A stretch of 64,000 nt of DNA from Patescibacteria group bacterium. GTDB lineage: Bacteria; Patescibacteriota; Patescibacteriia; Patescibacteriales; UBA12465. Shown here piece by piece: positions 1,798-53,830 of this stretch. Each line of letters opens with the position of its first letter. Position 1 is the stretch's first letter. The notes beneath the pieces were generated by a model. The model made no database searches. It had not been told where the DNA came from and worked only from the letters and a program-made list of their open reading frames with translations. A program made the position numbers and the translations under genes. The stretch covers positions 64,691 to 128,690 of the forward strand of contig JBAZTY010000001.1 of assembly GCA_041661685.1 (NCBI GenBank), read 5' to 3'.

Positions 1798-3588
1798 ATG
1801 ACCCAAGTAAACGAGAAAAAAAATGAGAAGGAGAGCATATCCTGGAAACGTTTCTGGATAGAATTATGGCGCTTATTAGCGTCTTTTAGGAAATTGTTCG
1901 GAACCATCACCCTCGTTATCTTGGCGGCGGCGCTTTTGGATTTAGGGAAGCCGTATATCTTGCAGCTGGTCATCGACAATCTGAATAATTTTTCCAATGA
2001 GAAGTTTCTCTTCTTGATCAAACTGATTGCTCTTTATTTAGCTACGGATGAAGTCCGCTCTTTCATCCAGTATTTGTCTGATCGTAAGATTTTGAGCTTA
2101 TTGGTAAAAGTGGAATATTTCTTGGGCATGAAGGCTCAAGAAAAATTAGTCTCGCTCAGCCTCGGCTACCACGAGCGCCAGAATACCGGATCTAAGATAA
2201 TCAAGATTGAGAAGGGAGTTGATAAGATTTCTGAATTTTTGAACAATATCTTCTGGGAAGTGCTCCCGACTGTCTTTCAGCTCGTCTTCACTCTCGTCGC
2301 TTTATTCTGGTCCGACTGGCGTATCGGCCTATCCTTCCTCATCTTCGCGCCGCTTTTCATCTTTATCACCTATTGGTCGAATAAGCGGATGTATCCGGTC
2401 ATGAAGGCGATTTTTCGCTACTATGAAGACGCTTCTGGCAAGATGGGGCAGGCGATCATCAATATCAACGCGGTTCAGTCTTTTGTCCAAGAAGAGAACG
2501 AGCTAAAAGGCTTCAGCCGCATCAAGGAGCGTATTCGCGACAATGAGAATAAACAATATGGCTGGATGATGAAGATCGGCTTAGGGCGTAATTTCATCGT
2601 CGATGTCGGCCGTTCCGCCGTTTTATTCCTCGGCGTTTATTTGGTCTATAAAGGTTTGATGACTATCGGCTCTTTGATTTTCGTCTTTACGCTCAGCGAA
2701 AAGGCTTATGCTTCTTTATATCGTTTGTCTCGTTTTTATGATCGTATGGAAAAAGGCCGGGAAGGCGTTAGCCGTCTGATTGCCTTATTTAATGAAGAGA
2801 GCGAGATAATTAATTCGCCGGACGGCTTAAAGCCGCAAGATATCAAAGGCGAAATCAGCTTTGACCACGCTTCTTTCTATTATAATATTAATAAGCGCCC
2901 CGCTGTCAGCGATCTAAATTTCACGATTCAATCGGGCGGCGTCACAGCGCTCGTCGGTCCTTCCGGCGGCGGCAAGACGACTATTGCCCGTTTAGCCTAT
3001 CGCCATTATGATCCTCAGAAAGGCCGTGTTTTGTTGGACGGAAAAGATTTGCGCGATTATGACTTGAAGAGCTTTAGGAAATTTTTAGCTATTGTCCCGC
3101 AAGAGGTAGAAATATTTGATCTGACTGTCGCAGAAAATATTGCCTACGCTCGGCCGGAAGCTACTCGCGAAGAGATAGTCGCGGCGGCTAAGATCGCCAA
3201 TGCCGATGAATTCATCAACAAGCTCGACAAGAGCTACGAAACGATGACTGGAGAAAGAGGCATAAAATTATCCGGCGGCCAGCGCCAGCGCCTCGGCATT
3301 GCTCGGGCGATTCTAGCTAATCCGCGCATCCTCATCTTTGATGAAGCGACTTCTAATCTTGATAGCCAGAGCGAAGTTTTAATTCAAGACGCGATGAAGA
3401 AGATCAGTCAGAATCGAACTATGATAATCATCGCCCATCGTTTAAGTACTATAAAACAAGCTGATAATATTATTGTCCTTGAAGGCGGCAAGGTGGCCGA
3501 GCAGGGCAGCCATAAGGAATTGGCTTCGGCTCAAGGCGGCCTATATGCCAAACTCTTGAAGCTGCAGGCGATGGGGGAAGTGGATTAA
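1798..3588 (+). CDS. Fused ABC exporter (TM permease domain + ATPase), MsbA/ABCB-like
   Basis: 596 aa. Hydrophobic N-terminal half, Walker A GPSGGGKTT, signature LSGGQRQR, Walker B ILIFDEATS. Confidence 0.9.
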   Translation: MTQVNEKKNEKESISWKRFWIELWRLLASFRKLFGTITLVILAAALLDLGKPYILQLVIDNLNNFSNEKFLFLIKLIALYLATDEVRSFIQYLSDRKILSLLVKVEYFLGMKAQEKLVSLSLGYHERQNTGSKIIKIEKGVDKISEFLNNIFWEVLPTVFQLVFTLVALFWSDWRIGLSFLIFAPLFIFITYWSNKRMYPVMKAIFRYYEDASGKMGQAIININAVQSFVQEENELKGFSRIKERIRDNENKQYGWMMKIGLGRNFIVDVGRSAVLFLGVYLVYKGLMTIGSLIFVFTLSEKAYASLYRLSRFYDRMEKGREGVSRLIALFNEESEIINSPDGLKPQDIKGEISFDHASFYYNINKRPAVSDLNFTIQSGGVTALVGPSGGGKTTIARLAYRHYDPQKGRVLLDGKDLRDYDLKSFRKFLAIVPQEVEIFDLTVAENIAYARPEATREEIVAAAKIANADEFINKLDKSYETMTGERGIKLSGGQRQRLGIARAILANPRILIFDEATSNLDSQSEVLIQDAMKKISQNRTMIIIAHRLSTIKQADNIIVLEGGKVAEQGSHKELASAQGGLYAKLLKLQAMGEVD

Positions 3589-3630
3589 TTAATATTTTTT
3601 GGTTTTTTGTGATATTTTAAAATACTAATC

Positions 3631-4419
3631 TTGAGTTTTATGTATAAAGGATTTACTTCTGAGGACTATAAAAAATATTTTAATCTTTCGGCAGAGTATT
3701 CTGTTTCTGGATTGCTGTCTTCTGGCACCTGGAACGAAGAAGAATATTTTAAAGAAATACATGAAGTTCTTAAAGGTTTGAACATTGGGTACTCATCTAA
3801 GAGATTGGAAGGATTTCTGAGTCATATATATGAGATTAAGATAGATGGCAAGATCTACTGGTTGAGTTCATTATATGGTGGTGTTATGTTATCAGAATAT
3901 ATTCATTTGGCCTGTCTTTTTGGATCAAAAAAGAATATTCATATAGGAAGTTGTGGAGGACTCTATCCGAATATGAAAACATTGGATTTTTTGATTCCGA
4001 GTTATAGCTATGGCGACGAGAGCACCACTAGAATGTATGATCGTAAAATAACTGATAACAAACATTTTCCCAATGAAAGTTTATCTAATTTTCTCGTAGG
4101 AAGATTGCCAGCTAAAAGCAAGATTTGGCGCGGGCCAGTTACAACTTGCCAGGCTATGTTAGGCGAAACTTTCGAAGATGTGGCCGCTTGGTCAAAAGAT
4201 GGCTATTATGGAGTAGACATGGAAACCTCCACCTTATTTTCTATTTCTAATTATTTTAAAGTTCCAAGCTCGGCGCTTTTATACGTGGCTGATAATTTAA
4301 TAGAAAATTTTACAGTACTCGATGAAGAGTTTGTAAATAATAAAAAAGTACGGGATGAGATAAAAAATAATGTTTATCGTACAGGTCTGCTAACCTTGAT
4401 TGAATACAGTCTAAGCTAG
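3631..4419 (+). CDS. PNP/UDP-family nucleoside phosphorylase-like protein
   Basis: 262 aa. GSCGGL, GVDMETSTLF and ALLYVADN segments resemble the purine/uridine phosphorylase fold. TTG start at 3631 or ATG at 3640. Visibly AT-rich gene. Confidence 0.55.
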   Translation: MSFMYKGFTSEDYKKYFNLSAEYSVSGLLSSGTWNEEEYFKEIHEVLKGLNIGYSSKRLEGFLSHIYEIKIDGKIYWLSSLYGGVMLSEYIHLACLFGSKKNIHIGSCGGLYPNMKTLDFLIPSYSYGDESTTRMYDRKITDNKHFPNESLSNFLVGRLPAKSKIWRGPVTTCQAMLGETFEDVAAWSKDGYYGVDMETSTLFSISNYFKVPSSALLYVADNLIENFTVLDEEFVNNKKVRDEIKNNVYRTGLLTLIEYSLS

Positions 4420-4585
4420 ATAAAATTTATTATATTCATGCCAGTTTTTTGGTCAGATATCTTTGATCTAGCCACCTTTAATTGTGATTGACAAAATCCA
4501 AATAAAGATGTTAAATGATATGAATCCCAAAAAAGGGAATTGTATCTTTAACAATTAAATTCTGAAATCAAAAAAACCAAGAGAT

Positions 4586-6010
4586 ATGAAGACTATTACT
4601 AAAAGAGAGAATGATTATTCACAGTGGTATCTGGATGTTATCGCTGCGGCTGACCTCGCCGAACACTCGGTCGTTAGGGGGTGCATGGTCATAAAACCAT
4701 ACGGGTATGCTATCTGGGAAAAAATGGTTAGCGTTATTGATTCCATGCTGAAAGAAAAAGGAGTCAAAAATGCTTATTTTCCTATTTTTATTCCCGAAAG
4801 CTTCTTAGAGAGGGAGAAAAAGCACGTTAAGGGATTCTCGCCAGAGTTGGCAGTGGTCACTCATGGCGGAGGCAACAAGCTCCAAGAACCGCTTATTGTC
4901 AGACCGACATCGGAGACGATAATTTACGACTCTTTTTCTAAATGGATTAATTCTTATCGCGATTTGCCTATGCTAATAAATCAATGGGCAAACGTCGTGC
5001 GTTGGGAAATGAGGCCTAGATTATTCCTGCGTACTACGGAATTCTTATGGCAAGAGGGTCACACAGCTCATGTTTCTCTAGAAGAGGCGGACAAGTACGC
5101 TCTCGATATTCTAAACAATGTTTATAAAAGATTCGCCGAAGATTATATGGCTATGCCTGTCTATACTGGGCAGAAGTCGGAAGGTGAAAAATTTGCCGGT
5201 GCTTTTAAAACTTATTGTATCGAGGCAATGATGCAGGATGGAAAATCTCTTCAAGCCGGAACGTCCCATAATTTATCTGATAATTTTTCTAAATCTTTTA
5301 ATGTTTCTTTTCTTGATGAAACCGGGAGAAAGAAGAATGTATTTCAGACAAGTTGGGGAGTTAGTACTAGATTGATTGGCGGTTTGATTATGAGTCATAG
5401 CGACGATAGGGGGCTTGTTCTGCCACCGAAGATAGCTCCGATTCATGTTGTTATTATACCCGTTAATCCAAATGAAAAGATTTTGGACACTATCCAATCA
5501 ATAAGGCAGAGCCTATCTGGTATTCCTGTTGAAGTCGACTTGAGAGACAATCTTAATCCTGGAGAAAAATATTATGAGTGGGAGAAGAAGGGAATCCCGA
5601 TCAGAATTGAAATCGGACCAAAAGATTTAGAAAAAGGAGAGATAGTTATGGTTCGTCGAGATTCTGGCGTTAAAAAATCTTGTCCTATTGCTGGAGTCAG
5701 ATTAACGATTGAGAAAACATTATTAGACATTCAGGAAAATCTTTTTCTCAAGGCGTTGGATAGAAGGCAGAAAAGTAATGGAAAGGCAGACTCTTGGATC
5801 GCGTTTGAACAGAAAATCAGATCCGGAGGCTACGTATTTGCACATTGGTGTGAAGGTGAGGATTGTGAGGCTGACATCAAAAAGAAAACTAAAGCCGTCA
5901 GTCGATTCTTATCTTTTGACGCCGATGAGGAAGGCGGTGTCCATGTTTGTATAAACTGCGGAAAAAATGTAGTCGAAAAGAAACGTTGGGCATTTGCTAA
6001 GGCTTATTAA
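4586..6010 (+). CDS. proS: Prolyl-tRNA synthetase, archaeal/eukaryote-like type
   Basis: 474 aa. N-terminus KRENDYSQWYLDVI...GCMVIKPYGYAIWE is typical of the short ProRS type. Class II core and a C-terminal Cys-rich Zn domain ending AKAY. Confidence 0.92.
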   Translation: MKTITKRENDYSQWYLDVIAAADLAEHSVVRGCMVIKPYGYAIWEKMVSVIDSMLKEKGVKNAYFPIFIPESFLEREKKHVKGFSPELAVVTHGGGNKLQEPLIVRPTSETIIYDSFSKWINSYRDLPMLINQWANVVRWEMRPRLFLRTTEFLWQEGHTAHVSLEEADKYALDILNNVYKRFAEDYMAMPVYTGQKSEGEKFAGAFKTYCIEAMMQDGKSLQAGTSHNLSDNFSKSFNVSFLDETGRKKNVFQTSWGVSTRLIGGLIMSHSDDRGLVLPPKIAPIHVVIIPVNPNEKILDTIQSIRQSLSGIPVEVDLRDNLNPGEKYYEWEKKGIPIRIEIGPKDLEKGEIVMVRRDSGVKKSCPIAGVRLTIEKTLLDIQENLFLKALDRRQKSNGKADSWIAFEQKIRSGGYVFAHWCEGEDCEADIKKKTKAVSRFLSFDADEEGGVHVCINCGKNVVEKKRWAFAKAY

Positions 6011-6037
6011 CAAACCAAAAAAGAAAGGAGCGAAAAA

Positions 6038-7198
6038 ATGTTTGATTCAGTAAGATTAGAGTTAACTGGCAGGTGTGATATGAAATGTCTTTACTGTCAC
6101 GCAGGAGAAAAAAATACTGCCTGTTATAATGAAGAGGAGCTATCTCATGAGAGATGGTTAGAAATTATTGCCGAATGTAAAGAGCTTGGAGTGAAAAATT
6201 TTACGCTTACCGGCGGAGAACCTTTCCTTTATAGTCGCTGGCCGGAAATAGTCGAAGCCTGCGGTCAGGAATCAAGAGTAGTCATCTCTACAAACGGAAA
6301 GCACTTTTCACGTAGCAATATTGAAATCATCTCTACTTTTCCTCAGATTAAAGAGTTTAGAACTAGTCTGGATGGGTTAGAGACGAATGACCTGATACGC
6401 GATGGTAGCAGCTATAAGTCCGCCCTGGAAAATATCAGGCTTCTTAAAACTTTGCTGCCCGATCGAAAGATCATGATCCAAACGGTGATTTATGAACAGA
6501 ATATCCCTGAGATTTCGCCGCTCTATGAAGAATTGAAAGGTATAGGGATTTACTGTTGGCGCTTAAGCCAGCTTTGGAAGACGGTTAGAACTCAGAAAAA
6601 TCGTCATATTGTGGATTTTTCTGATTATAACAAACTTTTTGATGTTTATGCTGAAATCATAAAAAAACATCAATCAGACGCCAAGCCCTTTCTCTTGAGG
6701 ATAGACAATGTTTATTATTCCTGGATAGATAAGGAGGATTATGCTCCAATGGACTTATTCGGTCATCCTTGCGAATATAATTTCGCCCATCTTTGCATTA
6801 ATGCCAACGGCGATTTAATTTTTTGTCCAGCCATGAATGTCAGCTATGGGTCTGTTAAGGAGCGCCAGATTAAAGATGTAGTAGAAAATTCTGAATGGTT
6901 CGATCGTTTCAAAAAAATTACTGTTAAATCGCTCGGTTGCGGAAATTGCCGTTACATTAAGATATGTGGTGGAGGTTGCCGCGCCGATGCCTTAAGATGG
7001 TTAGGAAAGACGGAAGATATTGACCCCAATTCTTGTTGCATGATGCCTAGAATTGAAAACCTCATTCTGCCTTTGCTTGGAGAGGAAGAAAGACTCGCGT
7101 TTTCTGCCTTGATAAATAAAGATGGAATATATCCCCGTTTTTGTGGAGATAATATTGAAGTAGTAGTTAGTTCATTCTTAAAAAAAGGAGAACAGTAA
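6038..7198 (+). CDS. Radical SAM enzyme with C-terminal SPASM-like Cys cluster
   Basis: 386 aa. CDMKCLYCH (CxxxCxxC) near the N-terminus and C-terminal CGNCRYIKICGGGCRADA plus further Cys. Strong AAGGAG RBS 8 nt upstream. Starts 27 nt after the proS stop. Confidence 0.85.
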   Translation: MFDSVRLELTGRCDMKCLYCHAGEKNTACYNEEELSHERWLEIIAECKELGVKNFTLTGGEPFLYSRWPEIVEACGQESRVVISTNGKHFSRSNIEIISTFPQIKEFRTSLDGLETNDLIRDGSSYKSALENIRLLKTLLPDRKIMIQTVIYEQNIPEISPLYEELKGIGIYCWRLSQLWKTVRTQKNRHIVDFSDYNKLFDVYAEIIKKHQSDAKPFLLRIDNVYYSWIDKEDYAPMDLFGHPCEYNFAHLCINANGDLIFCPAMNVSYGSVKERQIKDVVENSEWFDRFKKITVKSLGCGNCRYIKICGGGCRADALRWLGKTEDIDPNSCCMMPRIENLILPLLGEEERLAFSALINKDGIYPRFCGDNIEVVVSSFLKKGEQ

Positions 7199-7254
7199 CA
7201 TGGTACTCAAAAACAAACAGCCGAGCTAGCCTGAGCGCAGTTCGCTAGAAGTAA

Positions 7255-7290
7255 GGCCAAACATGACGAAATGTTTGGCCTTTTTATTTT
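7255..7290 (+). terminator. Intrinsic terminator after the radical SAM gene
   Basis: 10-bp stem GGCCAAACAT / ATGTTTGGCC with loop GACGAA, followed by TTTTTATTTT. Confidence 0.7.
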
Positions 7291-7315
7291 GTAAATATTA
7301 CTCGTAGTTTACTGA

Positions 7316-8362
7316 ATGAAATTTTTCGATTATAATAAAAATATGCTTAATATAGAGAAAAACAAGGATTTAACTCCCTATACGACCCTGAAAATCGGCG
7401 CTCCGGCCGAGTTTTTCGCTGTTATCAAGAGCCGAGAAGATCTGGATGAAGCCATTCTATGGGCGAAGAGAAATAAGAAAGTTATCTGGGTTTTGGGCGG
7501 AGGTTCCAACGTCTTGATTTCTAAGAAAGTAAAGGGCTTGGTCTTGAAGAATGAAATCAAGGGGATGGAGATAAAGAAAGATGATGCTTTATCTGCTATC
7601 GTTGAAGCTGAGTCGGGAGAAAGCTGGACTCGTTTTGTTAATTTTACCGTTGAAAATAATCTAAGCGGATTGGAGAATCTGTTTTTGATCTATGGAACTG
7701 TTGGCGCTGCTCCGGTCCAGAATATCGGCGCTTATGGTATGGAATTAAAAGACGTCTTTCATTCGCTCGTAGCGATTGATTTGAAAACTGGAAGAGAGAA
7801 AATTTTTAAATCAGCTGATTGCCGTTTTGGTTATCGCGACAGTATTTTTAAGAATAAGCTGAAGGGCCGTTACTTTATTTATTCCGTGGCTTTGAAATTG
7901 AGCAAGAAGCCAGAGCTTAAATTAGACTACGGTTCGCTGCGAGAAAAATTATTAGAGCAGGGGATTGAGAATCCTTCTTCAAGAGACGTTATTGCCGTCA
8001 TCACTGAGATTAGGAACAGTAAATTGCCGAATCCGGGCGTGTTACCTAACGCTGGATCTTTTTTTAAGAATATAGAAGTGAGCATGGCTGTTTATAAGAG
8101 GTTATTAAAAAAATACCCGGCCATGCCGTCTTTTCCGGTCTCGACGATGCGCATTAAGATTCCGGCTGGCTGGCTGATAGAAACTGCCGGCTTTAAGGGC
8201 AAGAGATTCCAGTCAGTCGGCATGTATGAGAAGCAGGCTCTAATCTTCGTCAATTATGGCGGTGCGACCGCCAGCCAGGCTACCGCATTAGTCAAGAAGA
8301 TAAAAGTTGCTATCAAGAAAAAATTCGGCCTTGATTTAGAAGAGGAAGTTAATATAATATAA
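7316..8362 (+). CDS. murB: UDP-N-acetylenolpyruvoylglucosamine reductase
   Basis: 348 aa. PYTTLKIGAPAEFF, GGGSNVL and the FAD-binding MurB pattern, with a C-terminal MurB domain. Confidence 0.9.
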   Translation: MKFFDYNKNMLNIEKNKDLTPYTTLKIGAPAEFFAVIKSREDLDEAILWAKRNKKVIWVLGGGSNVLISKKVKGLVLKNEIKGMEIKKDDALSAIVEAESGESWTRFVNFTVENNLSGLENLFLIYGTVGAAPVQNIGAYGMELKDVFHSLVAIDLKTGREKIFKSADCRFGYRDSIFKNKLKGRYFIYSVALKLSKKPELKLDYGSLREKLLEQGIENPSSRDVIAVITEIRNSKLPNPGVLPNAGSFFKNIEVSMAVYKRLLKKYPAMPSFPVSTMRIKIPAGWLIETAGFKGKRFQSVGMYEKQALIFVNYGGATASQATALVKKIKVAIKKKFGLDLEEEVNII

Positions 8363-8393
8363 AGAGGCTGATATAATAAAATCTCCTAAACAT

Positions 8394-10220
8394 ATGACCT
8401 CAAGCGAACTCCGCCAAAAATATCTGGATTTTTTTAAGAGCTATGATCACGCTGTGATTTCTAGCGCTTCTTTGATTCCGGAAAATGATCCGACTGTCCT
8501 GTTCACGACCGCCGGCATGCATCCTTTAGTCCCATATCTATTGGGCGAAAAGCATCCGGCTGGAAAGCGCCTGACCAACGCCCAGAAATGCATTCGCACC
8601 GGCGATATTGAAGAAGTCGGCGACGCGACTCATCATACTTTTTTTGAAATGATGGGTAACTGGTCATTGGGAGATTATTTTAAGAAAGAAGCTATTAATT
8701 TTAGCTGGGAATTTTTAACTAGTGATAAATGGCTCAATCTTGATAAGGATCGCTTGGCTGTTTCCGTCTTTAAGGGCGATACTGATGCGCCTTTTGACGA
8801 GGAAGCTTATAATTTATGGGTAGAAATATTTAAGCAAAATAATTTGCCGTTAGAACGCATCGCTAAATTGCCGAAAAAAAATAATTGGTGGGGCCCGGCT
8901 GGAATAACCGGACCGTGCGGACCCGATACAGAAATATTTTATTGGACCGGCGAGGCCGCGCATACCCCCGGCAGTTTCAATGATGATAATGATTCTTGGG
9001 TGGAGATCTGGAATAACGTTTTCATGCAATATAATAAAAATGTCGCCGGAAAATTCGAGCCTTTAGTCCAGAAAAATGTAGACACTGGCTTGGGCCTGGA
9101 AAGAGTACTCGCTGTCATGAATGGCCTGGATGATAATTACAAAACCGATTTATTCATTAATATCATTAAGAAGATAGAAGAGCTGAGTAGCCATAAATAT
9201 GGGGAGAATACGGAAACAACGCGCGCGATGCGCATCATCGCCGACCACCTCAAGGCCGCAACTTTTATTGTTGGCGACAATCGCGGAGTCGCTCCGTCTA
9301 ATACTGATCAAGGTTATGTTGTTCGTCGTTTAATTAGGCGCGCTATTCGCTATGGACGCCAATTGGGTATCGCTAAGGAACTATGGACGGCCGATATCGC
9401 CACTATCGCGATTAATGATTATAAAGATATCTATCCGGAATTTGAAAAAAATAAAGCTTTCATTCTTGACAATCTGAATAAGGAAGAAGAAAAATTTAAT
9501 CGGACTTTAGAAAAAGGCCTGATTGAGTTCAATAAATTATCCGTTAACGGCATCAGCGGGGAAGAAGCCTTCAATCTTTATCAGAGCTACGGTTTCCCAT
9601 TGGAAATAACCGAAGAATTAGCTAAAGAGAAAGGCGTGACTATCGATCGCGCTGGTTTTGAAGTTGAACTCAAAAAGCATCAAGACCTATCTCGCACCGC
9701 TTCGGCCGGAAAATTTAAAGGCGGTTTGGCTGACGCCGGCGAGGAGACTGTTAAGCTGCATACGGCTGCGCATTTGCTTCTGGCCGCTTTGCGCCGTGTC
9801 TTGGGAGATCATGTTTTACAGAAGGGCGCTAACATCACCCCCGAGCGTTTGCGCCTTGATTTTTCTCATCCAGAAAAGATGACGCCTGATCAGATAAGCC
9901 AGGTCGAGAATCTCGTTAATGAAGCTATCAAGAGCGATTTTAAAGTAATCTGCGAAGAATTAACTTTAGAAGAAGCAAAAAGGCGGGGCGCGATGGGAGT
10001 TTTTGATTCGAAATATGGAGAAAAAGTGAAGGTTTATACGGTCTGTCATTTGGGAGAGGGTAATAATCTTTCCCCAGAATCTCTAAAATCAGCCTTTTCG
10101 CAGGAAATCTGCGGCGGCCCCAATGTAGAAAATACGCAGATATTAGGACATTTTTCTATTCAGAAGGAAGAGGCTTCAAGTGCCGGAGTTAGGAGAATTA
10201 AGGCTATCTTAACGAAATAA
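8394..10220 (+). CDS. alaS: Alanyl-tRNA synthetase, short form lacking the C-Ala domain
   Basis: 608 aa. N-terminus SSELRQKYLDFFKSYDH, FTTAGM, editing-domain HTAAHLL and AGVRRIKA motifs. Ends right after the editing domain. Confidence 0.92.
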   Translation: MTSSELRQKYLDFFKSYDHAVISSASLIPENDPTVLFTTAGMHPLVPYLLGEKHPAGKRLTNAQKCIRTGDIEEVGDATHHTFFEMMGNWSLGDYFKKEAINFSWEFLTSDKWLNLDKDRLAVSVFKGDTDAPFDEEAYNLWVEIFKQNNLPLERIAKLPKKNNWWGPAGITGPCGPDTEIFYWTGEAAHTPGSFNDDNDSWVEIWNNVFMQYNKNVAGKFEPLVQKNVDTGLGLERVLAVMNGLDDNYKTDLFINIIKKIEELSSHKYGENTETTRAMRIIADHLKAATFIVGDNRGVAPSNTDQGYVVRRLIRRAIRYGRQLGIAKELWTADIATIAINDYKDIYPEFEKNKAFILDNLNKEEEKFNRTLEKGLIEFNKLSVNGISGEEAFNLYQSYGFPLEITEELAKEKGVTIDRAGFEVELKKHQDLSRTASAGKFKGGLADAGEETVKLHTAAHLLLAALRRVLGDHVLQKGANITPERLRLDFSHPEKMTPDQISQVENLVNEAIKSDFKVICEELTLEEAKRRGAMGVFDSKYGEKVKVYTVCHLGEGNNLSPESLKSAFSQEICGGPNVENTQILGHFSIQKEEASSAGVRRIKAILTK

Positions 10221-10229
10221 CCCCGTCTA

Positions 10230-10258
10230 TTGACAACTTCCAAACTTATCTCTATAAT
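10230..10258 (+). promoter_or_regulatory. Consensus sigma70-type promoter upstream of infA
   Basis: TTGACA (10230-10235), 17-nt spacer, TATAAT (10253-10258). Confidence 0.6.
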
Positions 10259-10346
10259 AATTTTATTAAGATCAAGCGAAAAAATATCTTAAATAATTTT
10301 TAAAGAATTTTGATAAAACGCTCTTAGGCCTTTATCAAATTTTTTT

Positions 10347-10610
10347 GTGTTAATGTCAAACGAAAAAGAAAATAATAACGACGGTTCCGCTACGCTCAAC
10401 GCCAAAGACTTCATTGAGATGCAGGGCGAAGTATTGGAACTGATGCCCGCGGCCAGCTTTAAGGTCGGCTTGGAAAATGGGCATGAAATTTTAGCTCACC
10501 TATCGGGAAAAATGCGGATGAATAAAATTCGCTTGCTTCCGGGTGATAAGGTCAAGCTGCAGATCAGCCCCTATGACCTGACCAAGGGCCGGATAACTTA
10601 TCGCATGTAA
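10347..10610 (+). CDS. infA: Translation initiation factor IF-1
   Basis: S1-like core [10 protein letters not shown]...[19 protein letters not shown]...[16 protein letters not shown] at 10347 or ATG at 10353. Confidence 0.93.
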
Positions 10611-10637
10611 TTCACGTTAATTAGATAAATCTTTTAT

Positions 10638-10751
10638 ATGAAAGTAAGAGCCAGTGCTAAAAAAATTTGTAAAGATTGTAAAGTGGTCCGCCGCAAAGGC
10701 TGCGTCCATGTTATTTGTAAAAATCCTAAACATAAACAAAGACAAGGTTAA
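10638..10751 (+). CDS. rpmJ: 50S ribosomal protein L36
   Basis: Not in the ORF track (37 aa). Hand translation gives [37 protein letters not shown], with stop TAA at 10749-10751. Canonical infA-rpmJ-rpsM position. Confidence 0.9.
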
Positions 10752-10763
10752 TCTTTTAATATT

Positions 10764-11159
10764 ATGGCAGTAAGAATCGCGGGAGTTAACATCCCTAATG
10801 ACAAAAGAATCGAAATCGCTCTGACTTATATCCACGGCATCGGGACCACTCGGGCTACTAAGATTTTGGCCGAGGCTAAGGTCAACAAGGATATCAGAGT
10901 CAAAGATTTGAAAGAAACTGAAGTTAATACGCTTCGGGAAATTGTTGAGAAGAAATACACGGTTGAAGGCGATCTGCGCCGTGAGGTGTCTAGCAATATC
11001 AAGCGTTTAAGAGAAATCGGCTGCTATCGCGGTTTACGCCACGCTAAGCACCTTCCGGTTCGCGGACAGCGCACTAAGACTAATAGCCGCACGGTTAGAG
11101 GCAATAAGCGCGTAACCATGGGCAGCGGCAAGAGCAAGGCTGGCTTACAGAAGACTTAA
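10764..11159 (+). CDS. rpsM: 30S ribosomal protein S13
   Basis: [27 protein letters not shown]... is a typical S13 sequence. Confidence 0.95.
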
Positions 11160-11196
11160 TCCAATAATTTGAGCATTACGAACTAAGAATTAAATT

Positions 11197-11763
11197 ATGT
11201 CAGAAGAAGTAAAAAAAGAAGAAACCCCGATAATCGGCGGAACTAATAAAGAAGAAACCAGCGAGCCTAAAGAAGAAAAAGAGGCCCCGGAGTTTTCTTT
11301 TGATTCAGCTGTCGAGGAATTACCCGAAGAAATCAAGCAGAAACTGGAAAAGAATAAGGCTGCTAGAGCGAAAAAAAAGCTGATCAAGAAGAAAAAGAAG
11401 AAGACCGCTAAGGTCGTTAAGATTGGCCGCGCTTATATTCAGGCGACTTATAACAACACCATGATCACTCTGACGGACCCCAATGGCGATGTGATTTCTT
11501 GGGCGAGCGCCGGTTTAGCCGGTTTCAAGGGCGCTAAGAAAGCGACTCCTTATGCTGCTCAAATCATCACTAAGATCGCTTCTCAGAAAGCCAGAGAAGA
11601 ATACGGACTGGAAGAAGTGAGCGTTTTCGTTTCCGGCGTCGGCACCGGCCGTGAAGCGGCTATCCGCGCTTTGAATGCCAATGGCCTGAACGTCACCTCG
11701 ATTAAAGATATGACCTCCGTGCCTCATAATGGTTGCCGTCCGAAGAAACCGAGAAGAGTCTAA
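11197..11763 (+). CDS. rpsK: 30S ribosomal protein S11 with about 60-aa Lys/Glu-rich N-terminal extension
   Basis: C-terminal 125 aa is canonical S11 ([18 protein letters not shown]...[12 protein letters not shown]). The N-terminus is low-complexity E/K. Confidence 0.93.
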
Positions 11764-11807
11764 TCATAATTATAAAAAAGACATAAAGTCATTAACGATA
11801 CAAAGCT

Positions 11808-12437
11808 ATGGGAAGAAATATTGACAGCACATGCAGCCAGTGCCGCCGTTCCGGTGAGAAGCTGTTCTTAAAAGGAGACCGCTGTTCCACTCCGAAATGC
11901 GCGATGATCAAGCGTAATTACGCTCCTGGTTTTCATGGTCCTAAGGGCCGCAAGCGCTTAAGCGACTACGGAGCTCAGTTAGCGGAAAAACAGAAAGCCA
12001 AGAAATTCTATGGCTTGCTAGAAAAGCAATTCCGCTTGACTCTGGAGAAGGCTTCTAAGAAACAAGGCGATGCCGGTAAGAATTTTTTACGTGCCCTAGA
12101 AATGCGTTTGGACAACGTCGTTTATCGCTTGGGCTGGGCCACGTCTCGCGCGGCTGCTCGCCAATTAGTCAACCATGGTCATTTCACCGTTGATGCTCGT
12201 AAGGCTGATATCCCGTCTTTCTCCGTTAAGGCCGGCCAGACTATCAAGGTCAAGAAGAATAGCGCTAATAGCCCTTACTTCAAGAAAGCCGTTGAGCATC
12301 TCAAGAAAGCAGATCGTCCGAGCTGGTTGAACTTTGACGCCAAGGATTTGAGCGCTAAAGTTCTGCATGAGCCTAAAGACGCTGATTTGCCTCAGAATCT
12401 TAACGTTCAAGTGATCATTGAGTATTACTCAAAATAA
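11808..12437 (+). CDS. rpsD: 30S ribosomal protein S4
   Basis: N-terminal Zn-ribbon CSQCRR...CSTPKC and an S4 RNA-binding domain. Confidence 0.95.
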   Translation: MGRNIDSTCSQCRRSGEKLFLKGDRCSTPKCAMIKRNYAPGFHGPKGRKRLSDYGAQLAEKQKAKKFYGLLEKQFRLTLEKASKKQGDAGKNFLRALEMRLDNVVYRLGWATSRAAARQLVNHGHFTVDARKADIPSFSVKAGQTIKVKKNSANSPYFKKAVEHLKKADRPSWLNFDAKDLSAKVLHEPKDADLPQNLNVQVIIEYYSK

Positions 12438-12446
12438 TCTCAAATA

Positions 12447-12467
12447 ATACGGGCGACTCGCCCGTAT
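12447..12467 (+). other. Stable hairpin in the rpsD-rpoA spacer
   Basis: ATACGGGCG ACT CGCCCGTAT, a 9-bp GC-rich stem with no U-tract after it. Confidence 0.5.
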
Positions 12468-12479
12468 ACATAAAAAAAT

Positions 12480-13292
12480 ATGCAAAACATTGCACTGCCA
12501 AAAAAAATTGAATTCAAAGCCGGTAAGGATGTCCATGAGGGTATCGTTACGGTTGAACCTTTATTTCCGGGTTACGGCATGACTTTAGGTAATTCTTTGC
12601 GCCGCGTTCTCTTGTCCTCTCTCCCGGGAGCCGCTGTTATCGGCGCTAAGATAAAAGGTGCCAGTCATGAATTCATGGCTCTGCCTCATGTTAAGGAAGA
12701 TGTCTTAGAAATTTTATTAAACCTCAAGCAATTGCGCCTTAAGACTTTTACGGAAGAAGAAGTGCGTTTGGACCTTAAGGTTAAGGGTAAGAAAACCGTT
12801 AAGGCGAGCGATATCACCAAGAACTCCGAAGTAGAGATTAAGAATCCGGAATTAGTTATCGCTCATATCACTGATGAAGCCGGCAGCCTGGACATAGAAA
12901 TAACCGTTCAAGAAGGCCGCGGCTATAAGATGTCTGAAAATGTGAAGAAAGATACCCGCGAAATCGGCTATATCGAAATCGATTCTGTCTTTTCTCCGGT
13001 TACCCTCGTCAGCATCAGCGTGGAGAATACCCGCGTCGGTAAGATGACTAACTGGGATAAATTAGTTTTAGATATTAAGACTGACGGAACCATTACTGCC
13101 GAAAACGCTTTTAATGAAGCGGTTAAGATCCTAGTCGATCAATACTCCTCATTCCTGGCTATCTCTGGCCAGAAGGAAGAGAAGACAGTCGCCGCTCCAG
13201 AAGCTATAGCCGAAGAAACCGAAGAAGTTGAAGAAGCTAAGGAAGAAAAGGCTGAAAAGAAAGAAAAGAAAGCTAAAAAAATTAAGAAATAA
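12480..13292 (+). CDS. rpoA: RNA polymerase alpha subunit, N-terminal domain only, acidic/basic tail instead of the alpha C-terminal domain
   Basis: 270 aa. The N-terminal domain aligns through ...AVKILVDQYSSFLAI, then only EEKTVAAPEAIAEETEEVEEAKEEKAEKKEKKAKKIKK follows. Confidence 0.9.
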   Translation: MQNIALPKKIEFKAGKDVHEGIVTVEPLFPGYGMTLGNSLRRVLLSSLPGAAVIGAKIKGASHEFMALPHVKEDVLEILLNLKQLRLKTFTEEEVRLDLKVKGKKTVKASDITKNSEVEIKNPELVIAHITDEAGSLDIEITVQEGRGYKMSENVKKDTREIGYIEIDSVFSPVTLVSISVENTRVGKMTNWDKLVLDIKTDGTITAENAFNEAVKILVDQYSSFLAISGQKEEKTVAAPEAIAEETEEVEEAKEEKAEKKEKKAKKIKK

Positions 13293-13315
13293 TTCGTAAT
13301 CGTAATTGAACTGAT

Positions 13316-13666
13316 ATGCGTCACAGAAACAAAAACAAGATTTTGGATCGCCAGAAAGGTCCGCGCGAACTGATGCTTCGTAACCTAGCTTCTAGTATTT
13401 TAATATACGAGAAAGTTAAGACGACTAAAGCCAAAGCTCAGGCTGTCCGTCCTTTAGTGGAAAAGATGATCACCTCTTCCAAGGCCGGAGATCTGACCGC
13501 TCGTCGCGGCTTGATCAAAGTCTTATTACAGAAGAATGCCGTCAAGAAAGCGATTGAAGTGCTCGGCGTCCGCTACAAGACTCGTCCGGGCGGCTATACT
13601 CGCACTACTAAATTAGGAACTCGTCAGGGTGATGGCGCGGAGATGGTCCAGATTGAATTAGTATAA
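13316..13666 (+). CDS. rplQ: 50S ribosomal protein L17
   Basis: MRHRNKNKILDRQKGPRELMLRNLASSIL... is a typical L17 N-terminus. Follows rpoA. Confidence 0.94.
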   Translation: MRHRNKNKILDRQKGPRELMLRNLASSILIYEKVKTTKAKAQAVRPLVEKMITSSKAGDLTARRGLIKVLLQKNAVKKAIEVLGVRYKTRPGGYTRTTKLGTRQGDGAEMVQIELV

Positions 13667-13673
13667 ATATCAT

Positions 13674-14030
13674 ATGAAAAATATTGAAAGAAAATTAATA
13701 AAGATTGACGCTACCGGCAAGGCCATCGGACGCATGGCGACCGTTATCGCTCTTACCTTAAGAGGGAAGATGAAACCGGAATATCAGGCGCATTTGGATT
13801 TGGGCGATATCGTCGAAGTTTCCAATCTGGCGAAAGCTAAATTCACCGGCAAGAAGCTGGGTCAGAAAGAATATCATCATTACTCCGGTTATCTCGGCGG
13901 CTTGAAGACCAAGAAGATGTCCGAAATGTTCGTTAAGGATCCGGGTGAAGTCTTATTCAGAGCCGTGCGCGAGATGCTTCCTCCGACGAAGTTGCGCACT
14001 GATATGCTCAAAAGATTAATTATCAAATAA
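13674..14030 (+). CDS. rplM: 50S ribosomal protein L13 (short form)
   Basis: IDATGKAIGRMATVIALTLRGK...YHHYSGYLGGLK are typical L13 motifs. Confidence 0.93.
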   Translation: MKNIERKLIKIDATGKAIGRMATVIALTLRGKMKPEYQAHLDLGDIVEVSNLAKAKFTGKKLGQKEYHHYSGYLGGLKTKKMSEMFVKDPGEVLFRAVREMLPPTKLRTDMLKRLIIK

Positions 14031-14031
14031 T

Positions 14032-14541
14032 ATGGCAGAAAGAAAAGCAAAACCAGCTAAAGCTAAAGAGCTTGAGATCGGAGAAGTCCTGATCACTGAA
14101 ACCCCCTTGGAAGAAGAGAAGGAATGGGCGAAGAATGAAGTCGCTGAATTCAAAGGCAAATATATCAAGGCTGTCGGCCGCCGCAAGACTGCGGTCGCTA
14201 AGGTCCGTTTATATGAAGGTGGCAAGGGCATCATCATGATCAATGGTATGCGCGCTAGCCAGTATTTTCCTGGTGAAGGCGCCAGCTTGATTTCTCAGCC
14301 TTTAAAGGCGACCGGTCATGGCCGCGATTATAATTTTTCCGTCATCGCTCAAGGCGGCGGCAAGCAGGGTCAGATCGGCGCTGTCCGTTTAGGCATTGCT
14401 CGTGCTGTCTTCGCGCTTGATCCAGCCACTAAGGAGGCTTTGAAGGTCAATGATTTCTTAACTCGCGATCCGAGACAGGTGGAAAGAAAGAAACCGGGTC
14501 TGCGCAAAGCCAGAAAGGCCCCGCAATGGAGCAAACGTTAA
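14032..14541 (+). CDS. rpsI: 30S ribosomal protein S9 with about 40-aa N-terminal extension
   Basis: C-terminal GRRKTAVAKVRLYEG...GGGKQGQIGAVRLGIARA...RDPRQVERKKPGLRKARKAPQWSKR. Confidence 0.94.
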   Translation: MAERKAKPAKAKELEIGEVLITETPLEEEKEWAKNEVAEFKGKYIKAVGRRKTAVAKVRLYEGGKGIIMINGMRASQYFPGEGASLISQPLKATGHGRDYNFSVIAQGGGKQGQIGAVRLGIARAVFALDPATKEALKVNDFLTRDPRQVERKKPGLRKARKAPQWSKR

Positions 14542-40456: not shown

Positions 40457-41758
40457 ATGTCAAGGATATTGATTGCTGACGCAAAAAAACAGGGAAATGG
40501 CGAAGTGACTGTCTCTGGTTGGGTAAGGAATCTGCGTGCCCATAAAGGCATAGTTTTTGTGGATTTGCGCGATATTTCCGGGGCGATGCAGGTTGTTTTC
40601 GTGTCTGGCCAAGGCGGCTACGAATTGGCGGAAAAATTGACTCTGGAAAGCGTTATTACTGTCACCGGAACTTTACAAGAGAAACCAGCCAAGAAGAATG
40701 ATCCTAATCCGGTTAAGGATTTTGAATTAGCGGCTTCGAGCGCAGAGCTTATCTCTTTAGCGAATGAGAATTTACCTATTCCTGTCCTGACAAAAGCTGA
40801 TAATGAAGCCAACTCCGAGAATCGTTTCGACTGGCGCTGGCTGGATCTGCGCCAGGAAGAGCATCAGCTTATTTTTAAGGTCTGGACTAAGTTAGAAGCT
40901 GGTTGCCGTGAATATTGGTTAAAGAATAATTTCATCCAGATCTATACCCCATGTTTTATGAGCACGGCTTCAGAAACTGGTTCAGAAGTATTTGAGGTTA
41001 AATATTTTGACCGGAAAGCTTATCTAGCTCAGTCCCCGCAATTTTACAAACAGATGGCTATGGCCTCTGGTTTAGAAAAAGTTTTCATGGTTGGAACTGT
41101 TTTTCGCGCTGAACCCTCTTTTACTAGCCGCCACGTGACTGAATTCACCGGTTGGGATTTAGAGGTTTCTTTCATCGATTATAATGAAGTGATGAGCATC
41201 GAGGAGGATTTATTGATTTCTGGATTTAAAAAAGTTAAAGAAGATCTAAATATTGAAGTAGATGTTCCAACTAAGCCTTTCCCAAAGATAACTCTGGCGG
41301 CCGCCAAAGAAAAATTAAAAGCGGCCGGAATTAAGAGCGAAAAAGATTATGATTTTTCTACCGAGGAAGAGAAGGAATTAGGCCACATTATTAAGAAGGA
41401 AACTGGCCATGATTTTGTTTTTGTGACTGATTATCCGATTGCGGCGCGCCCTTTTTATCATATGCGCCATCAGGATAGTCCGGGATTAACTAAGAGTTTT
41501 GATTTATTATATCGCGGCCTAGAAATAACGACCGGATCACAGCGTGAGCACCGGATAGAAGTTTTAGAGAAACAGGCGATTGAGAAGGGCATGAATCTGG
41601 AAGAATTGAAAGATTATTTGAATTTTTTTCGTTACGGCTGCCCGAGCCATAGCGGTATCGGCATGGGCCCGGGACGCATTGTTATGAAGATGCTGGATCT
41701 GCCTAGCGTTAAGGAAGCTTGTTTCTTGCCGAGGGATGTCAAGAGATTAACTCCGTAA
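40457..41758 (+). CDS. aspS: Aspartyl-tRNA synthetase, archaeal-type short form
   Basis: 433 aa. N-terminal OB anticodon-binding domain, class II motifs (FRAEPS..., [20 protein letters not shown]). Confidence 0.9.
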
Positions 41759-41774
41759 TTTATTATTTTTTTAT

Positions 41775-43166
41775 ATGCCTTATACTCTCATTAAATCATT
41801 ATACAAAGAGACTAGCCGCTATCTGAATAAGAAAATAAATGTTGCCGGTTGGGTTCGTACTGCGCGCTCTTCTAAAGAATTCGGCTTTATCGAGCTTAAC
41901 GACGGTTCTTTCTTCAAGAGCCTGCAAATCGTCTTTGAGAGCAGCTTAGAAAATTTTTCCGAGGTAGAAAATATCAGCGTCGGCTCGTCTTTAGAAATAG
42001 AAGGCGAACTCGTCGAATCTCCCGCGGCCGGACAGGCTTTCGAGCTCAAGGCCAAGAAGATTACTATAATCAATCGCGCGCCGGAAGATTATCCCCTTCA
42101 GAAGAAGAAGCATAGCTTCGAGTTCTTGCGCGAGATTGCGCATCTGCGCGGCCGCAGCAATACTTTTTCCGCCGTTTTTCGCCTGCGCTCTTCGCTCAGC
42201 TACGCTATCCATAAATTTTTTCAGGAAGAAGGCTTCTCTTATGTCCATACCCCGATAATTTCCACGAGCGACGCCGAGGGCGCGGGCGAGATGTTCCAGG
42301 TGACGACTTTAGATTTAAAAAATGCGCCTAAGGATAAGAAAGGCGAAATAGATTACAGCGAAGATTTTTTCGGCAAGAAGGCGGGACTCACTGTTAGCGG
42401 CCAGCTTAATGCCGAAGCTTTAGTGATGGGCTTAAATAAAGTTTATACTTTCGGCCCGACTTTTCGGGCGGAAAATTCGAATACGACTCGCCACGCTTCC
42501 GAGTTCTGGATGATGGAGCCGGAAATGGCTTTCGCCGATCTAGAAGACAATATGATTTTGGCGGAGAAGATGCTGAAATATCTGATTGTCCATGTCTTGA
42601 AAGAATTGCCGGAAGAGATGGAATTTTTCAATAAGTTCATCGACACGACTCTGATGGAGCGTTTGAATAATATCGTTGATTCTGAATTCGGCCGCGTCAC
42701 TTATACTGAAGCGATCAGCATATTAGAAAAGTCCGGCGAGAAATTCGCTTTCCCGGTAAAATGGGGGATTGATTTGCAGACCGAGCATGAACGCTACTTG
42801 ACTGATAAAGTCTTTAAGAAGCCGGTTTTCGTCATTGATTATCCGAAAGATATTAAAGCTTTCTATATGCGCCTGAACGATGACGGTCGAACCGTGGCTG
42901 CGATGGATCTATTAGTTCCTGGCATCGGCGAGCTTATCGGCGGCAGCCAGAGAGAAGAGAACTTGGATAAATTGATCAAGCGTATGGAAGAGATGAATAT
43001 GAAATTAGAAGATTACCAGTGGTATCTGGATCTGCGCCGCTTCGGTTCCGTCAAGCACGCCGGTTTCGGACTCGGCTTCGAGCGAGCGATCATGTATCTC
43101 TCGGGCATGGCCAATATCCGCGACGTCATCCCGTTTCCGCGCACGCCGAAGAATGCTGAATTTTAA
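41775..43166 (+). CDS. asnS: Asparaginyl-tRNA synthetase
   Basis: 463 aa. [50 protein letters not shown]. Confidence 0.93.
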
Positions 43167-52643: not shown

Positions 52644-53252
52644 TTACGCGTTTTTTATTTCCTCTTGACGAGGGAAATAATTAGCCAATTTCATAAATTC
52701 TTCTTCGGTTATTTCAGTGTATTCCGGGTTGTCCCACAAAGAACATCCTTTCTCTCCAAACATGATCCATCCGTTTTTTATAAGACAGCAATCAGCTTCC
52801 TGGGGAGAAGGTTCGTTGCATAGGCCCAACGAATGCGCGTGTCCGATGATTTGGTTTTTTGGAACTGTCCCCCTTTTAAATTTTAAAAGATAAGCAGGGA
52901 AGAAGAATGAATTACACGGTGAGTCGTTAATAGTTTCTGTAAGATTTCGTGAGTAATATTCGCCCCCATCGGTAAATTTTTTTTCTAACGCCAAGTATAC
53001 TTCTGGCTGATCATTATTTTCCCATTTCCTGCAGTCAATGAATAAGAAGTTGTCATCTGTCATTTTTGGCAAAAGTTGCTTGGGGATAGCTATAGCGCTA
53101 TGACTACTAACCATTGTCCCTTTTTCCCACACTTTATTTCCTGCAAGCTCTACCGTAATTTTTCGATTATAAGGCGTGCTGATCGTTTCTTTGGTGGTTA
53201 TTATGCATTCATAATAGCCTTGTCTAAGAAAAAAAAGGTTGATTTGTGCCAT
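52644..53252 (-). CDS. Hypothetical protein
   Basis: 202-aa ORF. No recognisable motif. Several Cys/His (HAHSLGLCNE, CCLIKNG, KGCSLW). AT-rich. Confidence 0.65.
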   Translation of the reverse strand: MAQINLFFLRQGYYECIITTKETISTPYNRKITVELAGNKVWEKGTMVSSHSAIAIPKQLLPKMTDDNFLFIDCRKWENNDQPEVYLALEKKFTDGGEYYSRNLTETINDSPCNSFFFPAYLLKFKRGTVPKNQIIGHAHSLGLCNEPSPQEADCCLIKNGWIMFGEKGCSLWDNPEYTEITEEEFMKLANYFPRQEEIKNA

Positions 53253-53695: not shown

Positions 53696-53830
53696 ATATT
53701 AAATTGTCCTTCAAAAAACAAAAATGCTTTAAAACATTTTATGTCTTTATTCTAGCAAATACCCGACTTATGTCAATATTAGCGTTTTCAGGCTTATTTT
53801 GGTAAAATAATAATAATTAACGAAAAAATT

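Follow-up and report, generated by a model that had tools for sequence, protein, structure and literature searches.

The proS-linked radical SAM/SPASM gene and its product

The gene described here encodes a radical S-adenosylmethionine (SAM) enzyme with a SPASM domain and lies directly downstream of proS, the gene for prolyl-tRNA synthetase (ProRS), on contig JBAZTY010000001.1 of a Patescibacteria group bacterium. The analysed stretch of 64,000 nucleotides is henceforth referred to as the window, and the gene and its product as rSAM. Enzymes of the radical SAM/SPASM type are usually taken to produce peptide natural products or cofactors. The positions of the features discussed are given in Table 1, together with the aminoacyl-tRNA synthetase (aaRS) genes that adjoin relatives of rSAM at other loci.

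A spacer of 27 nt separates the proS stop codon from the rSAM start codon, no terminator-like site was found between the two genes, and a terminator-like hairpin follows rSAM. These features agree with the initial annotation, made from the letters of the window alone, which had placed the gene at the end of a proS operon; rSAM is predicted to be the last gene of that operon and to be co-transcribed with proS. Its neighbours in the window are proS upstream and murB, with alaS two genes downstream. The ProRS itself scores as a canonical housekeeping enzyme (TIGR00408, 535 bits against a cutoff of 437).

Table 1 Features of the proS-rSAM region of the window and synthetase partners of related rSAM genes
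Feature	Position in window, or related loci	Strand	Basis
rSAM/SPASM gene, ProRS-linked member of the aaRS-linked family	6038..7198	+	ATG start, 386 aa
Codons for C13-x3-C17-x2-C20, SAM-binding [4Fe-4S] motif	6074..6097	+	sequence; CDMKCLYCH
SPASM region, residues 245-334, Cys ligands for two predicted auxiliary clusters	6770..7039	+	PF13186 and conserved Cys
proS, archaeal/eukaryote-type prolyl-tRNA synthetase, conserved partner	4586..6010	+	TIGR00408
Shine-Dalgarno sequence AAGGAG, 7 nt ahead of the rSAM ATG	6025..6030	+	sequence
Terminator-like hairpin and T-run closing the proS-rSAM unit	7253..7292 (12-bp hairpin plus T-run, 7253-7282)	+	12-pair stem, 5 GC pairs, TTTATTTTGT tail
PNP_UDP_1-superfamily phosphorylase/nucleosidase-like gene upstream of proS	3631..4419	+	PF01048, 54 bits
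Non-discriminating aspS partner	L011, L077		
cysS partner	L014, L016, L019, L021, L050, L052, L055/58, L056, L065-67		
cysS partner (further loci)	L073, L090, L106, L139, L140		
trpS-type partner	L018, L061-64, L070, L075, L088/89, L105		
hisS partner	L071		
metS partner	L020, L110		
Archaeal-type leuS partner	L057		981 bits
asnS partner	L023		

The strong ribosome-binding site of rSAM is unusual in its surroundings, as had been remarked initially: a Shine-Dalgarno (SD)-like 4-mer precedes 7 of the 71 genes in the window, and AGGAG or GGAGG precedes 2. Among family members, an SD stands ahead of rSAM in 24 of 25, and its retention despite the rarity of SD use indicates a conserved, selected feature of the gene. 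The SD-supported ATG at 6038 is likely the true start and a better one than that of the public gene model P0001 (372 aa), which begins at M15 and is thus devoid of Cys13, the first cluster ligand. Stop-codon read-through giving a ProRS-rSAM fusion was considered and rejected; proS and rSAM share a reading frame in the window, yet do so in only 9 of 21 relatives (p = 0.24), and most spacers contain further stop codons. An Rfam scan of the window and 11 related loci detected no T-box or other riboswitch control, and no tRNA genes were detected across the 64-kb window.

The assignment of the product to the radical SAM superfamily and its SPASM subgroup was confirmed at the level of domains, conserved residues and modelled structure. 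Pfam matches above the gathering scores were obtained for Radical_SAM (PF04055, 67.7 bits against 29.5) and Fer4_12 (26.9 bits), and the SPASM domain PF13186 was matched over residues 245–304 at 24.3 bits, above its cutoff of 21.5. Membership of the SPASM subgroup was judged on a PF13186 match combined with the pattern CX9-15GX4C ... CX2CX5CX3C ... C, and rSAM displays the canonical arrangement (HPC245, C253-x4-G258-x4-C263, C301-x2-C304-x5-C310-x3-C314, C333). Within the CX3CX2C motif, 24 close homologues all keep C17 and C20 and nearly all keep C13, and the three residues are invariant among 36 members of the wider family. The eight SPASM cysteines (C245, C253, C263, C301, C304, C310, C314 and C333) are likewise invariant in the 24 close homologues and, except for C253, in the 36 distant ones. 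From the full SPASM domain and the radical SAM core, three [4Fe-4S] sites are predicted, two of them auxiliary.

An AlphaFold model computed with the family alignment as input was confident (pLDDT 89, pTM 0.88). In Foldseek, it superposed on SuiB and anSME (TM about 0.67–0.68) and on PqqE (TM about 0.62); the structural neighbours were SuiB (E 4e-16), SkfB, PqqE, BlsE and anSME, and also MoaA and viperin. A profile search of PDB sequences with the rSAM family returned SkfB, SuiB (E 5e-18, residues 12–317), CteB, PqqE and anSME. No recognition element (RRE) for ribosomally synthesised and post-translationally modified peptides (RiPPs), or other N-terminal peptide-binding domain, was found in rSAM. 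Barrel strand β1 runs from residue 4 and the cluster motif from residue 13, and an N-terminal RRE has no room because the radical SAM core begins at residue 4.

Judged by the NCBIfam equivalog models, all of which scored far under cutoff, rSAM is claimed by no curated family. The best model, AhbD, matched near full length at 93.4 bits against a cutoff of 500, followed by ScmE (88 against 400), WgkB (79 against 650), NirJ2 (76.8), NirJ (70.8) and AhbC (62.3), where the cutoffs of the haem-pathway models are 500–650. MoaA (65.8 against 284), PqqE (65.2 against 381), MftC (63.1 against 265), prokaryotic viperin NF038283 (54.8 against 180) and anSME TIGR03942 (52.4 against 349) complete the list. 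Of the three outcomes that the initial annotation had named as refuting it (no SPASM match, membership of a characterised cofactor-maturation family such as anSME, PqqE or MoaA, and no conserved proS adjacency), none was observed. A viperin-type defence role was also rejected, since the PADLOC pVip model reached only 57 bits over the radical SAM core and rSAM carries a full SPASM domain. In full-text literature searches, no published account of a link between a radical SAM family and tRNA synthetases was found.

Linkage to aminoacyl-tRNA synthetase genes

A word-indexed search of 5.8 billion proteins returned about 56 close clusters at 45–100% identity to rSAM, followed by a sharp fall to 33% or less. 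The few close clusters that carried a source name came from metagenome-assembled genomes (MAGs) of the candidate phyla radiation (CPR)/Patescibacteria. An exhaustive profile search yielded 199 clusters (at 50% identity) with E <= 1e-30, and the motifs H.E.TG.CNL.C.YC, SGGEPF, WRID.PF, HPC.Y, NGD..FCP and C..CRYL..CGGGCRADA are common to this wider family. The family was defined as RRE-less radical SAM plus SPASM proteins of about 360–400 aa that have an aaRS gene adjacent and contain four motifs, WR(L/I)..(P/L)(F/W), HPC.Y, NGD..FCP and C..CRY...CGGGCRAD. All four occur in the window protein, and proS is the adjacent synthetase gene. Almost all related loci are metagenome assemblies in which genes were called as longest open reading frames (ORFs), and the taxonomic labels of the MAGs are those deposited, some of which are probably wrong.

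Adjacency to proS, which the initial annotation could describe for one locus, proved to be conserved. In GTDB species-representative genomes, proS was located immediately upstream of rSAM on the same strand at 11 of 12 close loci, and none of the other rSAM neighbours in the window was retained there. When metagenome loci and context look-ups were added, the proS clade offered 25 informative non-redundant loci, and proS adjoined rSAM at 23 of them, the exceptions being L102 and the fragmentary L113. The pairing is present in flipped order (rSAM-proS) in L043 and L048 and as convergent genes in L094, and the remaining flanks are diverse (BipA, polysaccharide deacetylase, LemA, MFS, argS, acyltransferase). 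Spacers between proS and rSAM measure 16–74 nt across relatives. Pairwise distances of ProRS and rSAM at 22 loci were strongly correlated (r = 0.92, Mantel p about 5e-4), with mean divergences of 0.33 and 0.36, which indicates that rSAM and proS have been passed on together and that the constraint on rSAM nearly matches that on the essential synthetase.

More distant relatives of rSAM, at 27–46% identity, adjoin other synthetase genes (Table 1). In a neighbour-joining tree of 68 non-redundant members, the type of synthetase partner follows the rSAM phylogeny. A synthetase gene stands beside the rSAM block at 45 of the 68 loci; of the 23 loci without one, 9 are truncated at a contig end. Synthetase labels were assigned by BLAST to eight references, by Pfam and NCBIfam checks of selected proteins and by one pooled Pfam scan. 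The labelled fraction fell with gene distance from rSAM, from 43/155 at distance 1 to 9/135, 5/118, 1/103 and 3/80 at distances 2 to 5 and 5/152 beyond, so that with the eight references synthetases make up about 28% of immediate neighbours against about 3% at a distance of 4 or more. By Pfam, about 40% of 116 immediate neighbours are synthetases (ProRS-C_1, 21; tRNA-synt_1e, 10; tRNA-synt_2, tRNA-synt_1b and tRNA-synt_1, 6 each), the next commonest families being ABC_tran (4), GNAT (4) and NUDIX (3). Carriers include CPR bacteria, a Woesearchaeota (DPANN) MAG and MAGs labelled Clostridia, Lachnospiraceae, Bdellovibrionota and Victivallales.

The two structural classes of synthetase are non-homologous, so the pairings arose independently several times, and neither chance nor inherited synteny explains them. 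These radical SAM/SPASM proteins thus form an uncurated family in which each subclade is genetically coupled to one aaRS gene, the window holding the ProRS-coupled type; independent, clade-specific coupling to synthetases defines it as a new branch of the radical SAM/SPASM enzymes. Recruitment to at least eight tRNA-synthetase genes involves the family as a whole, and many of its carriers are organisms with some of the smallest known genomes. Very small genomes tend to retain only genes under selection.

Companion genes, precursor search and known relatives

The absence of a flanking precursor peptide, noted at the outset, was upheld in the window and at related loci. No plausible precursor-like, free-standing small ORF was found in 3550–7400, no small ORF is conserved across the proS-clade loci, and the long regions upstream of rSAM in the trpS-linked clade contain no precursor. 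Small ORFs beside L044 were inspected as candidate precursors and found unconvincing. No protease or transporter is conserved alongside the proS-rSAM pair. Leader-dependent RiPP maturases are recognised by a precursor gene in the cluster together with an RRE, and the rSAM locus has neither.

Proline biosynthesis genes occur at several proS-clade loci. The order proB-rSAM-proS was found in L048 (920–5373; proB, 290 bits), and proB, proA and proC lie beside the proS-rSAM pair in L010 (2433–9158) and in L012/L115. CPR genomes usually have no amino-acid biosynthesis, and such neighbours are unexpected there. A cysteine-desulfidase-like gene (PF03313) is present in L017 and L053. A second radical SAM gene recurs in cys-type loci and in some cases encodes a SPASM paralogue (best models PapB and QhpD, 164 bits, below cutoff) and in others a shorter protein of 254–295 aa.

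Genes of the GNAT acetyltransferase family lie between cysS and rSAM (L019, L065) or between two rSAM genes (L059), and GNAT domains are fused to the C-terminus in P0060, P0061 and P0121. Fusions of rSAM/SPASM with GNAT are encoded in L045 (2273–3971), L046 (303–2001), L047 (11–1552) and L117. A 49-aa ORF with three cysteines stands ahead of the fusion gene in L045/L046, a 577-aa ThiF/E1-like gene stands ahead of it in L117, and the gene for a small DUF7670 (PF24709) protein adjoins it in L047 (1878–2234). DUF7670 was also found directly upstream of a proS gene that has no rSAM partner (L131, 4673–4981; L132, 4033–4341). Further companions are sporadic and comprise a ThiF/E1-like gene in L096 as well, a Peptidase_U32-family gene in L052 and L139, a C39-like peptidase in L072, ABC-2 transporters in L044 and L140, and ABC exporters in the window and L043. 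Nucleotide-handling neighbours include PNP_UDP_1 (window, L097), NUDIX (L134, L017, L044, L140), ITPase-type NTPases (L102, L140) and a P-loop kinase-like gene (L102, L113, L134).

The PNP-like gene of the window is divergent, and a homologue at the same position was found only in the closest relative, L087, as a 257-aa ORF directly upstream of proS; in L097, a different and unrelated PNP_UDP_1 gene (6999–7949) directly follows rSAM. The weakly supported possibility is that it serves as an accessory that clears or salvages 5'-deoxyadenosine. With a G+C fraction of 0.347, it is the lowest in the region, compared with 0.394 for rSAM, 0.408 for proS, 0.412 for murB and a window mean of 0.437 (s.d. 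0.045). Of the AT-rich block initially described at 3.6–7.2 kb, only this gene therefore stands out, while proS and rSAM are within the spread of the window. The foreign origin proposed for the block is unsupported, because only the PNP-like gene is outlying in G+C and rSAM co-diverges with proS.

Two Firmicute-type loci have a richer setting. In L139 (Lachnospiraceae-labelled; 11249–14479), cysS is followed by genes for a SCIFF-like 49-aa peptide with six cysteines and a 420-aa radical SAM maturase, and a cys-type rSAM pair lies upstream of cysS. Both L139 and L140 (about 5495–11250) contain a RelA/SpoT-family gene near an array of small rSAM, rSAM, in some cases U32, and cysS. A run of GNAT, NUDIX and Ham1-like genes is also present in L140, together with an ABC-2 transporter resembling the rSAM-adjacent one of L044.

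A homologue from Lactococcus carnosus, 34% identical, is encoded in a classic RiPP-type cluster, where the enzyme is accompanied by a helix-turn-helix regulator, an Rgg regulator, a 49-aa ORF and an MFS exporter. In the tree it is a deep outlier, outside the synthetase-linked clades. Based on this cluster and its deep branching, the family most likely descends from RRE-less peptide-modifying enzymes, with an ancestral chemistry on polypeptides. The best neighbours in sequence and structure are the RRE-less streptococcal and lactococcal RiPP maturases (WgkB-type; SuiB/StrB, SkfB, CteB). Unlike WgkB-type and SuiB genes, rSAM has no conserved precursor, regulator, protease or exporter and is instead linked to a housekeeping synthetase.

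Other known enzymes share single traits with rSAM. The anSME/AtsB enzymes have the same architecture, an RRE-less core followed by a full SPASM domain in about 370–395 aa, and superpose at a Foldseek TM of about 0.68. Identity in the structural alignment is, however, 13–16%, and the neighbour of rSAM is a synthetase and not a sulfatase. The client of anSME is an entire protein, the product of the adjoining gene, and this provides an analogy for a maturase-client pair, although no shared counterpart of its C/S-x-P-x-R-like target motif is conceivable across different synthetases. AhbD, AhbC and NirJ are likewise RRE-less SPASM enzymes, but their substrate is non-peptide (haem/sirohaem), and no haem-pathway genes were found in the window or at related loci. 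Coupling of radical SAM genes to an aaRS or aaRS paralogue is known for PylB with PylS and EpmB with EpmA, both of which serve translation in connection with a single amino acid. PylB and EpmB are mutase-type enzymes without SPASM, unrelated to the rSAM family, and PylS and EpmA are dedicated or paralogous partners, whereas the ProRS partner of rSAM scores as the canonical housekeeping enzyme and the pattern in the rSAM family spans eight specificities.

Candidate substrates and further observations

The initial annotation had suggested a protein or RNA substrate encoded elsewhere. Pairing with synthetases across the family shifts the likely substrate to the neighbouring charging system, and the window enzyme is probably coupled in function to proline charging and not an ordinary RiPP maturase. 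As the overall best explanation, a leader-independent accessory enzyme acting on the cognate charging system, with ProRS as its likeliest target, is put forward tentatively. That the ProRS polypeptide itself is the substrate is a somewhat more doubtful proposal, which nevertheless heads the ranking of substrates, followed by a tRNA or aminoacyl-tRNA, then by a small molecule and a remote RiPP precursor on equal terms, and last by hitch-hiking without a functional partner. ProRS was chosen because of the polypeptide-modifying ancestry, the presence of SPASM without an RRE and the arrangement of a maturase beside its client.

Under this proposal, the reduced radical SAM cluster would cleave SAM to give a 5'-deoxyadenosyl radical, which would take a hydrogen from a ProRS residue. 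The two SPASM clusters would serve to hold the substrate and to deal with the second electron, and a cross-link, an oxidation or an epimerisation could result, much as anSME matures the sulfatase of the adjoining gene. Close ProRS relatives have no rSAM gene beside proS, so the effect of the modification would be to tune or protect ProRS, whose basic activity would not depend on it. Radical SAM enzymes usually consume one SAM per turnover, a cost that makes modification or biosynthesis at low flux more plausible than a part in bulk amino-acid metabolism.

Extension of the proposal to the whole family, as synthetase-specific radical enzymes that modify the aminoacylation machinery in the form of either the synthetase protein or the tRNA-attached amino acid, is regarded as unlikely on present evidence. 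In the latter variant, the modification may be pre-translational, with a logic comparable to Asp-tRNAAsn amidation or Sep-tRNACys conversion. If a synthetase, a tRNA or an aminoacyl-tRNA were modified, this would be new chemistry in the core of translation and would help to explain how protein synthesis is tuned or protected in ultra-small symbionts. A modified aminoacylation machinery would mean that translation in CPR bacteria, DPANN archaea and some anaerobic Firmicutes has a biochemical layer that has been hidden so far.

Several observations weigh against ProRS as the substrate. The window ProRS has more than 120 related clusters at 58% identity or above, and the rSAM search gave far fewer clusters in that identity range. 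The closest ProRS relative checked (80% identical) does have an rSAM neighbour, but no rSAM was found beside proS in Staskawiczbacteria (ProRS 74% identical), in Wolfebacteria (72%) or in a third case at 63%, which points to an accessory partner and makes any modification dispensable. No alignment column, special cysteine or motif separates rSAM-linked ProRS from these three verified unlinked ones, and the Zn-type cysteines and C-terminal ...AY are common to both. Partner synthetases span both structural classes, and partner TrpRS and AspRS can have zero cysteines, which implies that there is no common target motif. Fusions of aaRS and rSAM were absent among 10 long homologues, which were tandem rSAM repeats or fusions with glycosyltransferase or GNAT. 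Lastly, the loci that tie rSAM to metabolism of the same amino acid (proB-rSAM-proS, proBAC and, in the cys-type, cysteine-desulfidase-like genes) fit an amino-acid-centred or tRNA-centred role as well.

A tRNA-centred role, in which tRNAPro or Pro-tRNAPro is modified and each subclade is specific for one tRNA species and kept beside the matching synthetase, is judged unlikely. Clade-specific pairing with synthetases would be expected of such an enzyme, and the tRNA-His gene of L071 lies directly upstream of hisS-rSAM, although tRNA genes are not consistently adjacent to rSAM loci in general. The GNAT fusions and the GNAT genes between cysS and rSAM in distant members recall Elp3, a radical SAM plus GNAT/KAT enzyme without SPASM that acts on tRNA U34; the window rSAM has no GNAT, however, and no Elp3-specific Pfam domain was reported on the fusions. 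The sporadic Peptidase_U32-family and ThiF/E1-like neighbours are also suggestive, as the members TrhP and TcdA of those families modify tRNA. Strongly basic cys-type members (pI 9.3–9.8) would suit RNA binding, but the acidic window protein (pI 5.7) would not, and no consistent value is seen across the proS clade; pI was dropped as a test for RNA binding since it varies between and within clades. No SPASM-domain enzyme is known to act on RNA, the Pfam scan of rSAM revealed no RNA-binding domain, and its best structural neighbours act on peptides. Less probable again is a small molecule made from proline or prolyl-adenylate, such as an aminoacyl-nucleoside-type metabolite or a synthetase inhibitor, with corresponding products in the other subclades. 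The synthetase would then furnish the amino acid in activated form or be a tolerant version of the target in the producer, an assignment held with the same low confidence, and biosynthetic clusters for aaRS inhibitors that carry an aaRS gene are an established pattern. Such a role would accommodate the amino-acid-level neighbours, the recurrent PNP_UDP_1, NUDIX, P-loop kinase-like, ITPase-type and GNAT genes, the adenylating ThiF/E1-like enzymes and the Foldseek matches to the nucleotide-acting BlsE, MoaA and viperin, and would imply pathways of one or two genes into which the synthetase partner is built. A single enzyme would nonetheless be a very small pathway, and no second biosynthetic gene is consistently conserved in the proS clade. 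Comparison of linked with unlinked ProRS reveals no substitutions of the resistance type, the scores of the synthetases are those of ordinary housekeeping equivalogs, and the viperin and MoaA models are far below cutoff. The nucleotide-related neighbours are themselves sporadic, and the PNP could merely clear 5'-deoxyadenosine.

An ordinary RiPP maturase with a remote precursor, linked to the synthetase for co-expression or for supply of an amino acid that is abundant or modified in the precursor, is about as improbable as the small-molecule product. Kinship with RRE-less RiPP maturases and the Lactococcus cluster speak for it, as do the C39-like peptidase, the ABC-2 transporters and the ABC exporters beside rSAM genes, mostly of distant members, the SCIFF-like peptide and maturase right after cysS in L139 and the cysteine-containing 49-aa ORF ahead of the rSAM-GNAT fusion. 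Against it, no small ORF is conserved in any aaRS-linked clade, no protease or transporter accompanies the proS-rSAM pair consistently, and the RiPP-type homologue branches outside the clades in question; independent recruitment to at least eight synthetases and not to other core genes would also be left unexplained. Very improbable is the absence of any functional link, with rSAM as a passenger, an accessory gene spread through recombination within the conserved genes on its flanks and simply retained beside them. The patchy distribution among close ProRS lineages is what a passenger would show, and 5' remnants of synthetase genes upstream of rSAM resemble scars of recombination-mediated insertion. 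In L057, a 129-aa ORF (4281–4670) is 91% identical to residues 1–124 of the downstream LeuRS (7367–10054), and in L018, a 90-aa TrpRS-like fragment (7411–7683) has 33% identity to residues 10–85 of TrpRS (9272–10288). For a passenger any core gene should serve, yet synthetases are enriched about as 28% to 3% among the immediate neighbours, the eight types follow the rSAM phylogeny, and the pairing survives inversion of gene order. rSAM is, moreover, as conserved as ProRS, and its strong SD is kept in genomes that rarely use one. A general cassette that replaces or disrupts the resident synthetase was rejected, as two independent remnants (L057 and L018) are too few.

Elsewhere in the window, aspS and asnS are arranged in tandem at 40457–43166 without an rSAM partner. 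A full-length group I catalytic intron (Rfam RF00028, 84.5 bits) was identified on the reverse strand at 53431–53740, with a 202-aa ORF just downstream at 52644–53252 (−), and no rRNA or tRNA host gene was detected for it in the window.

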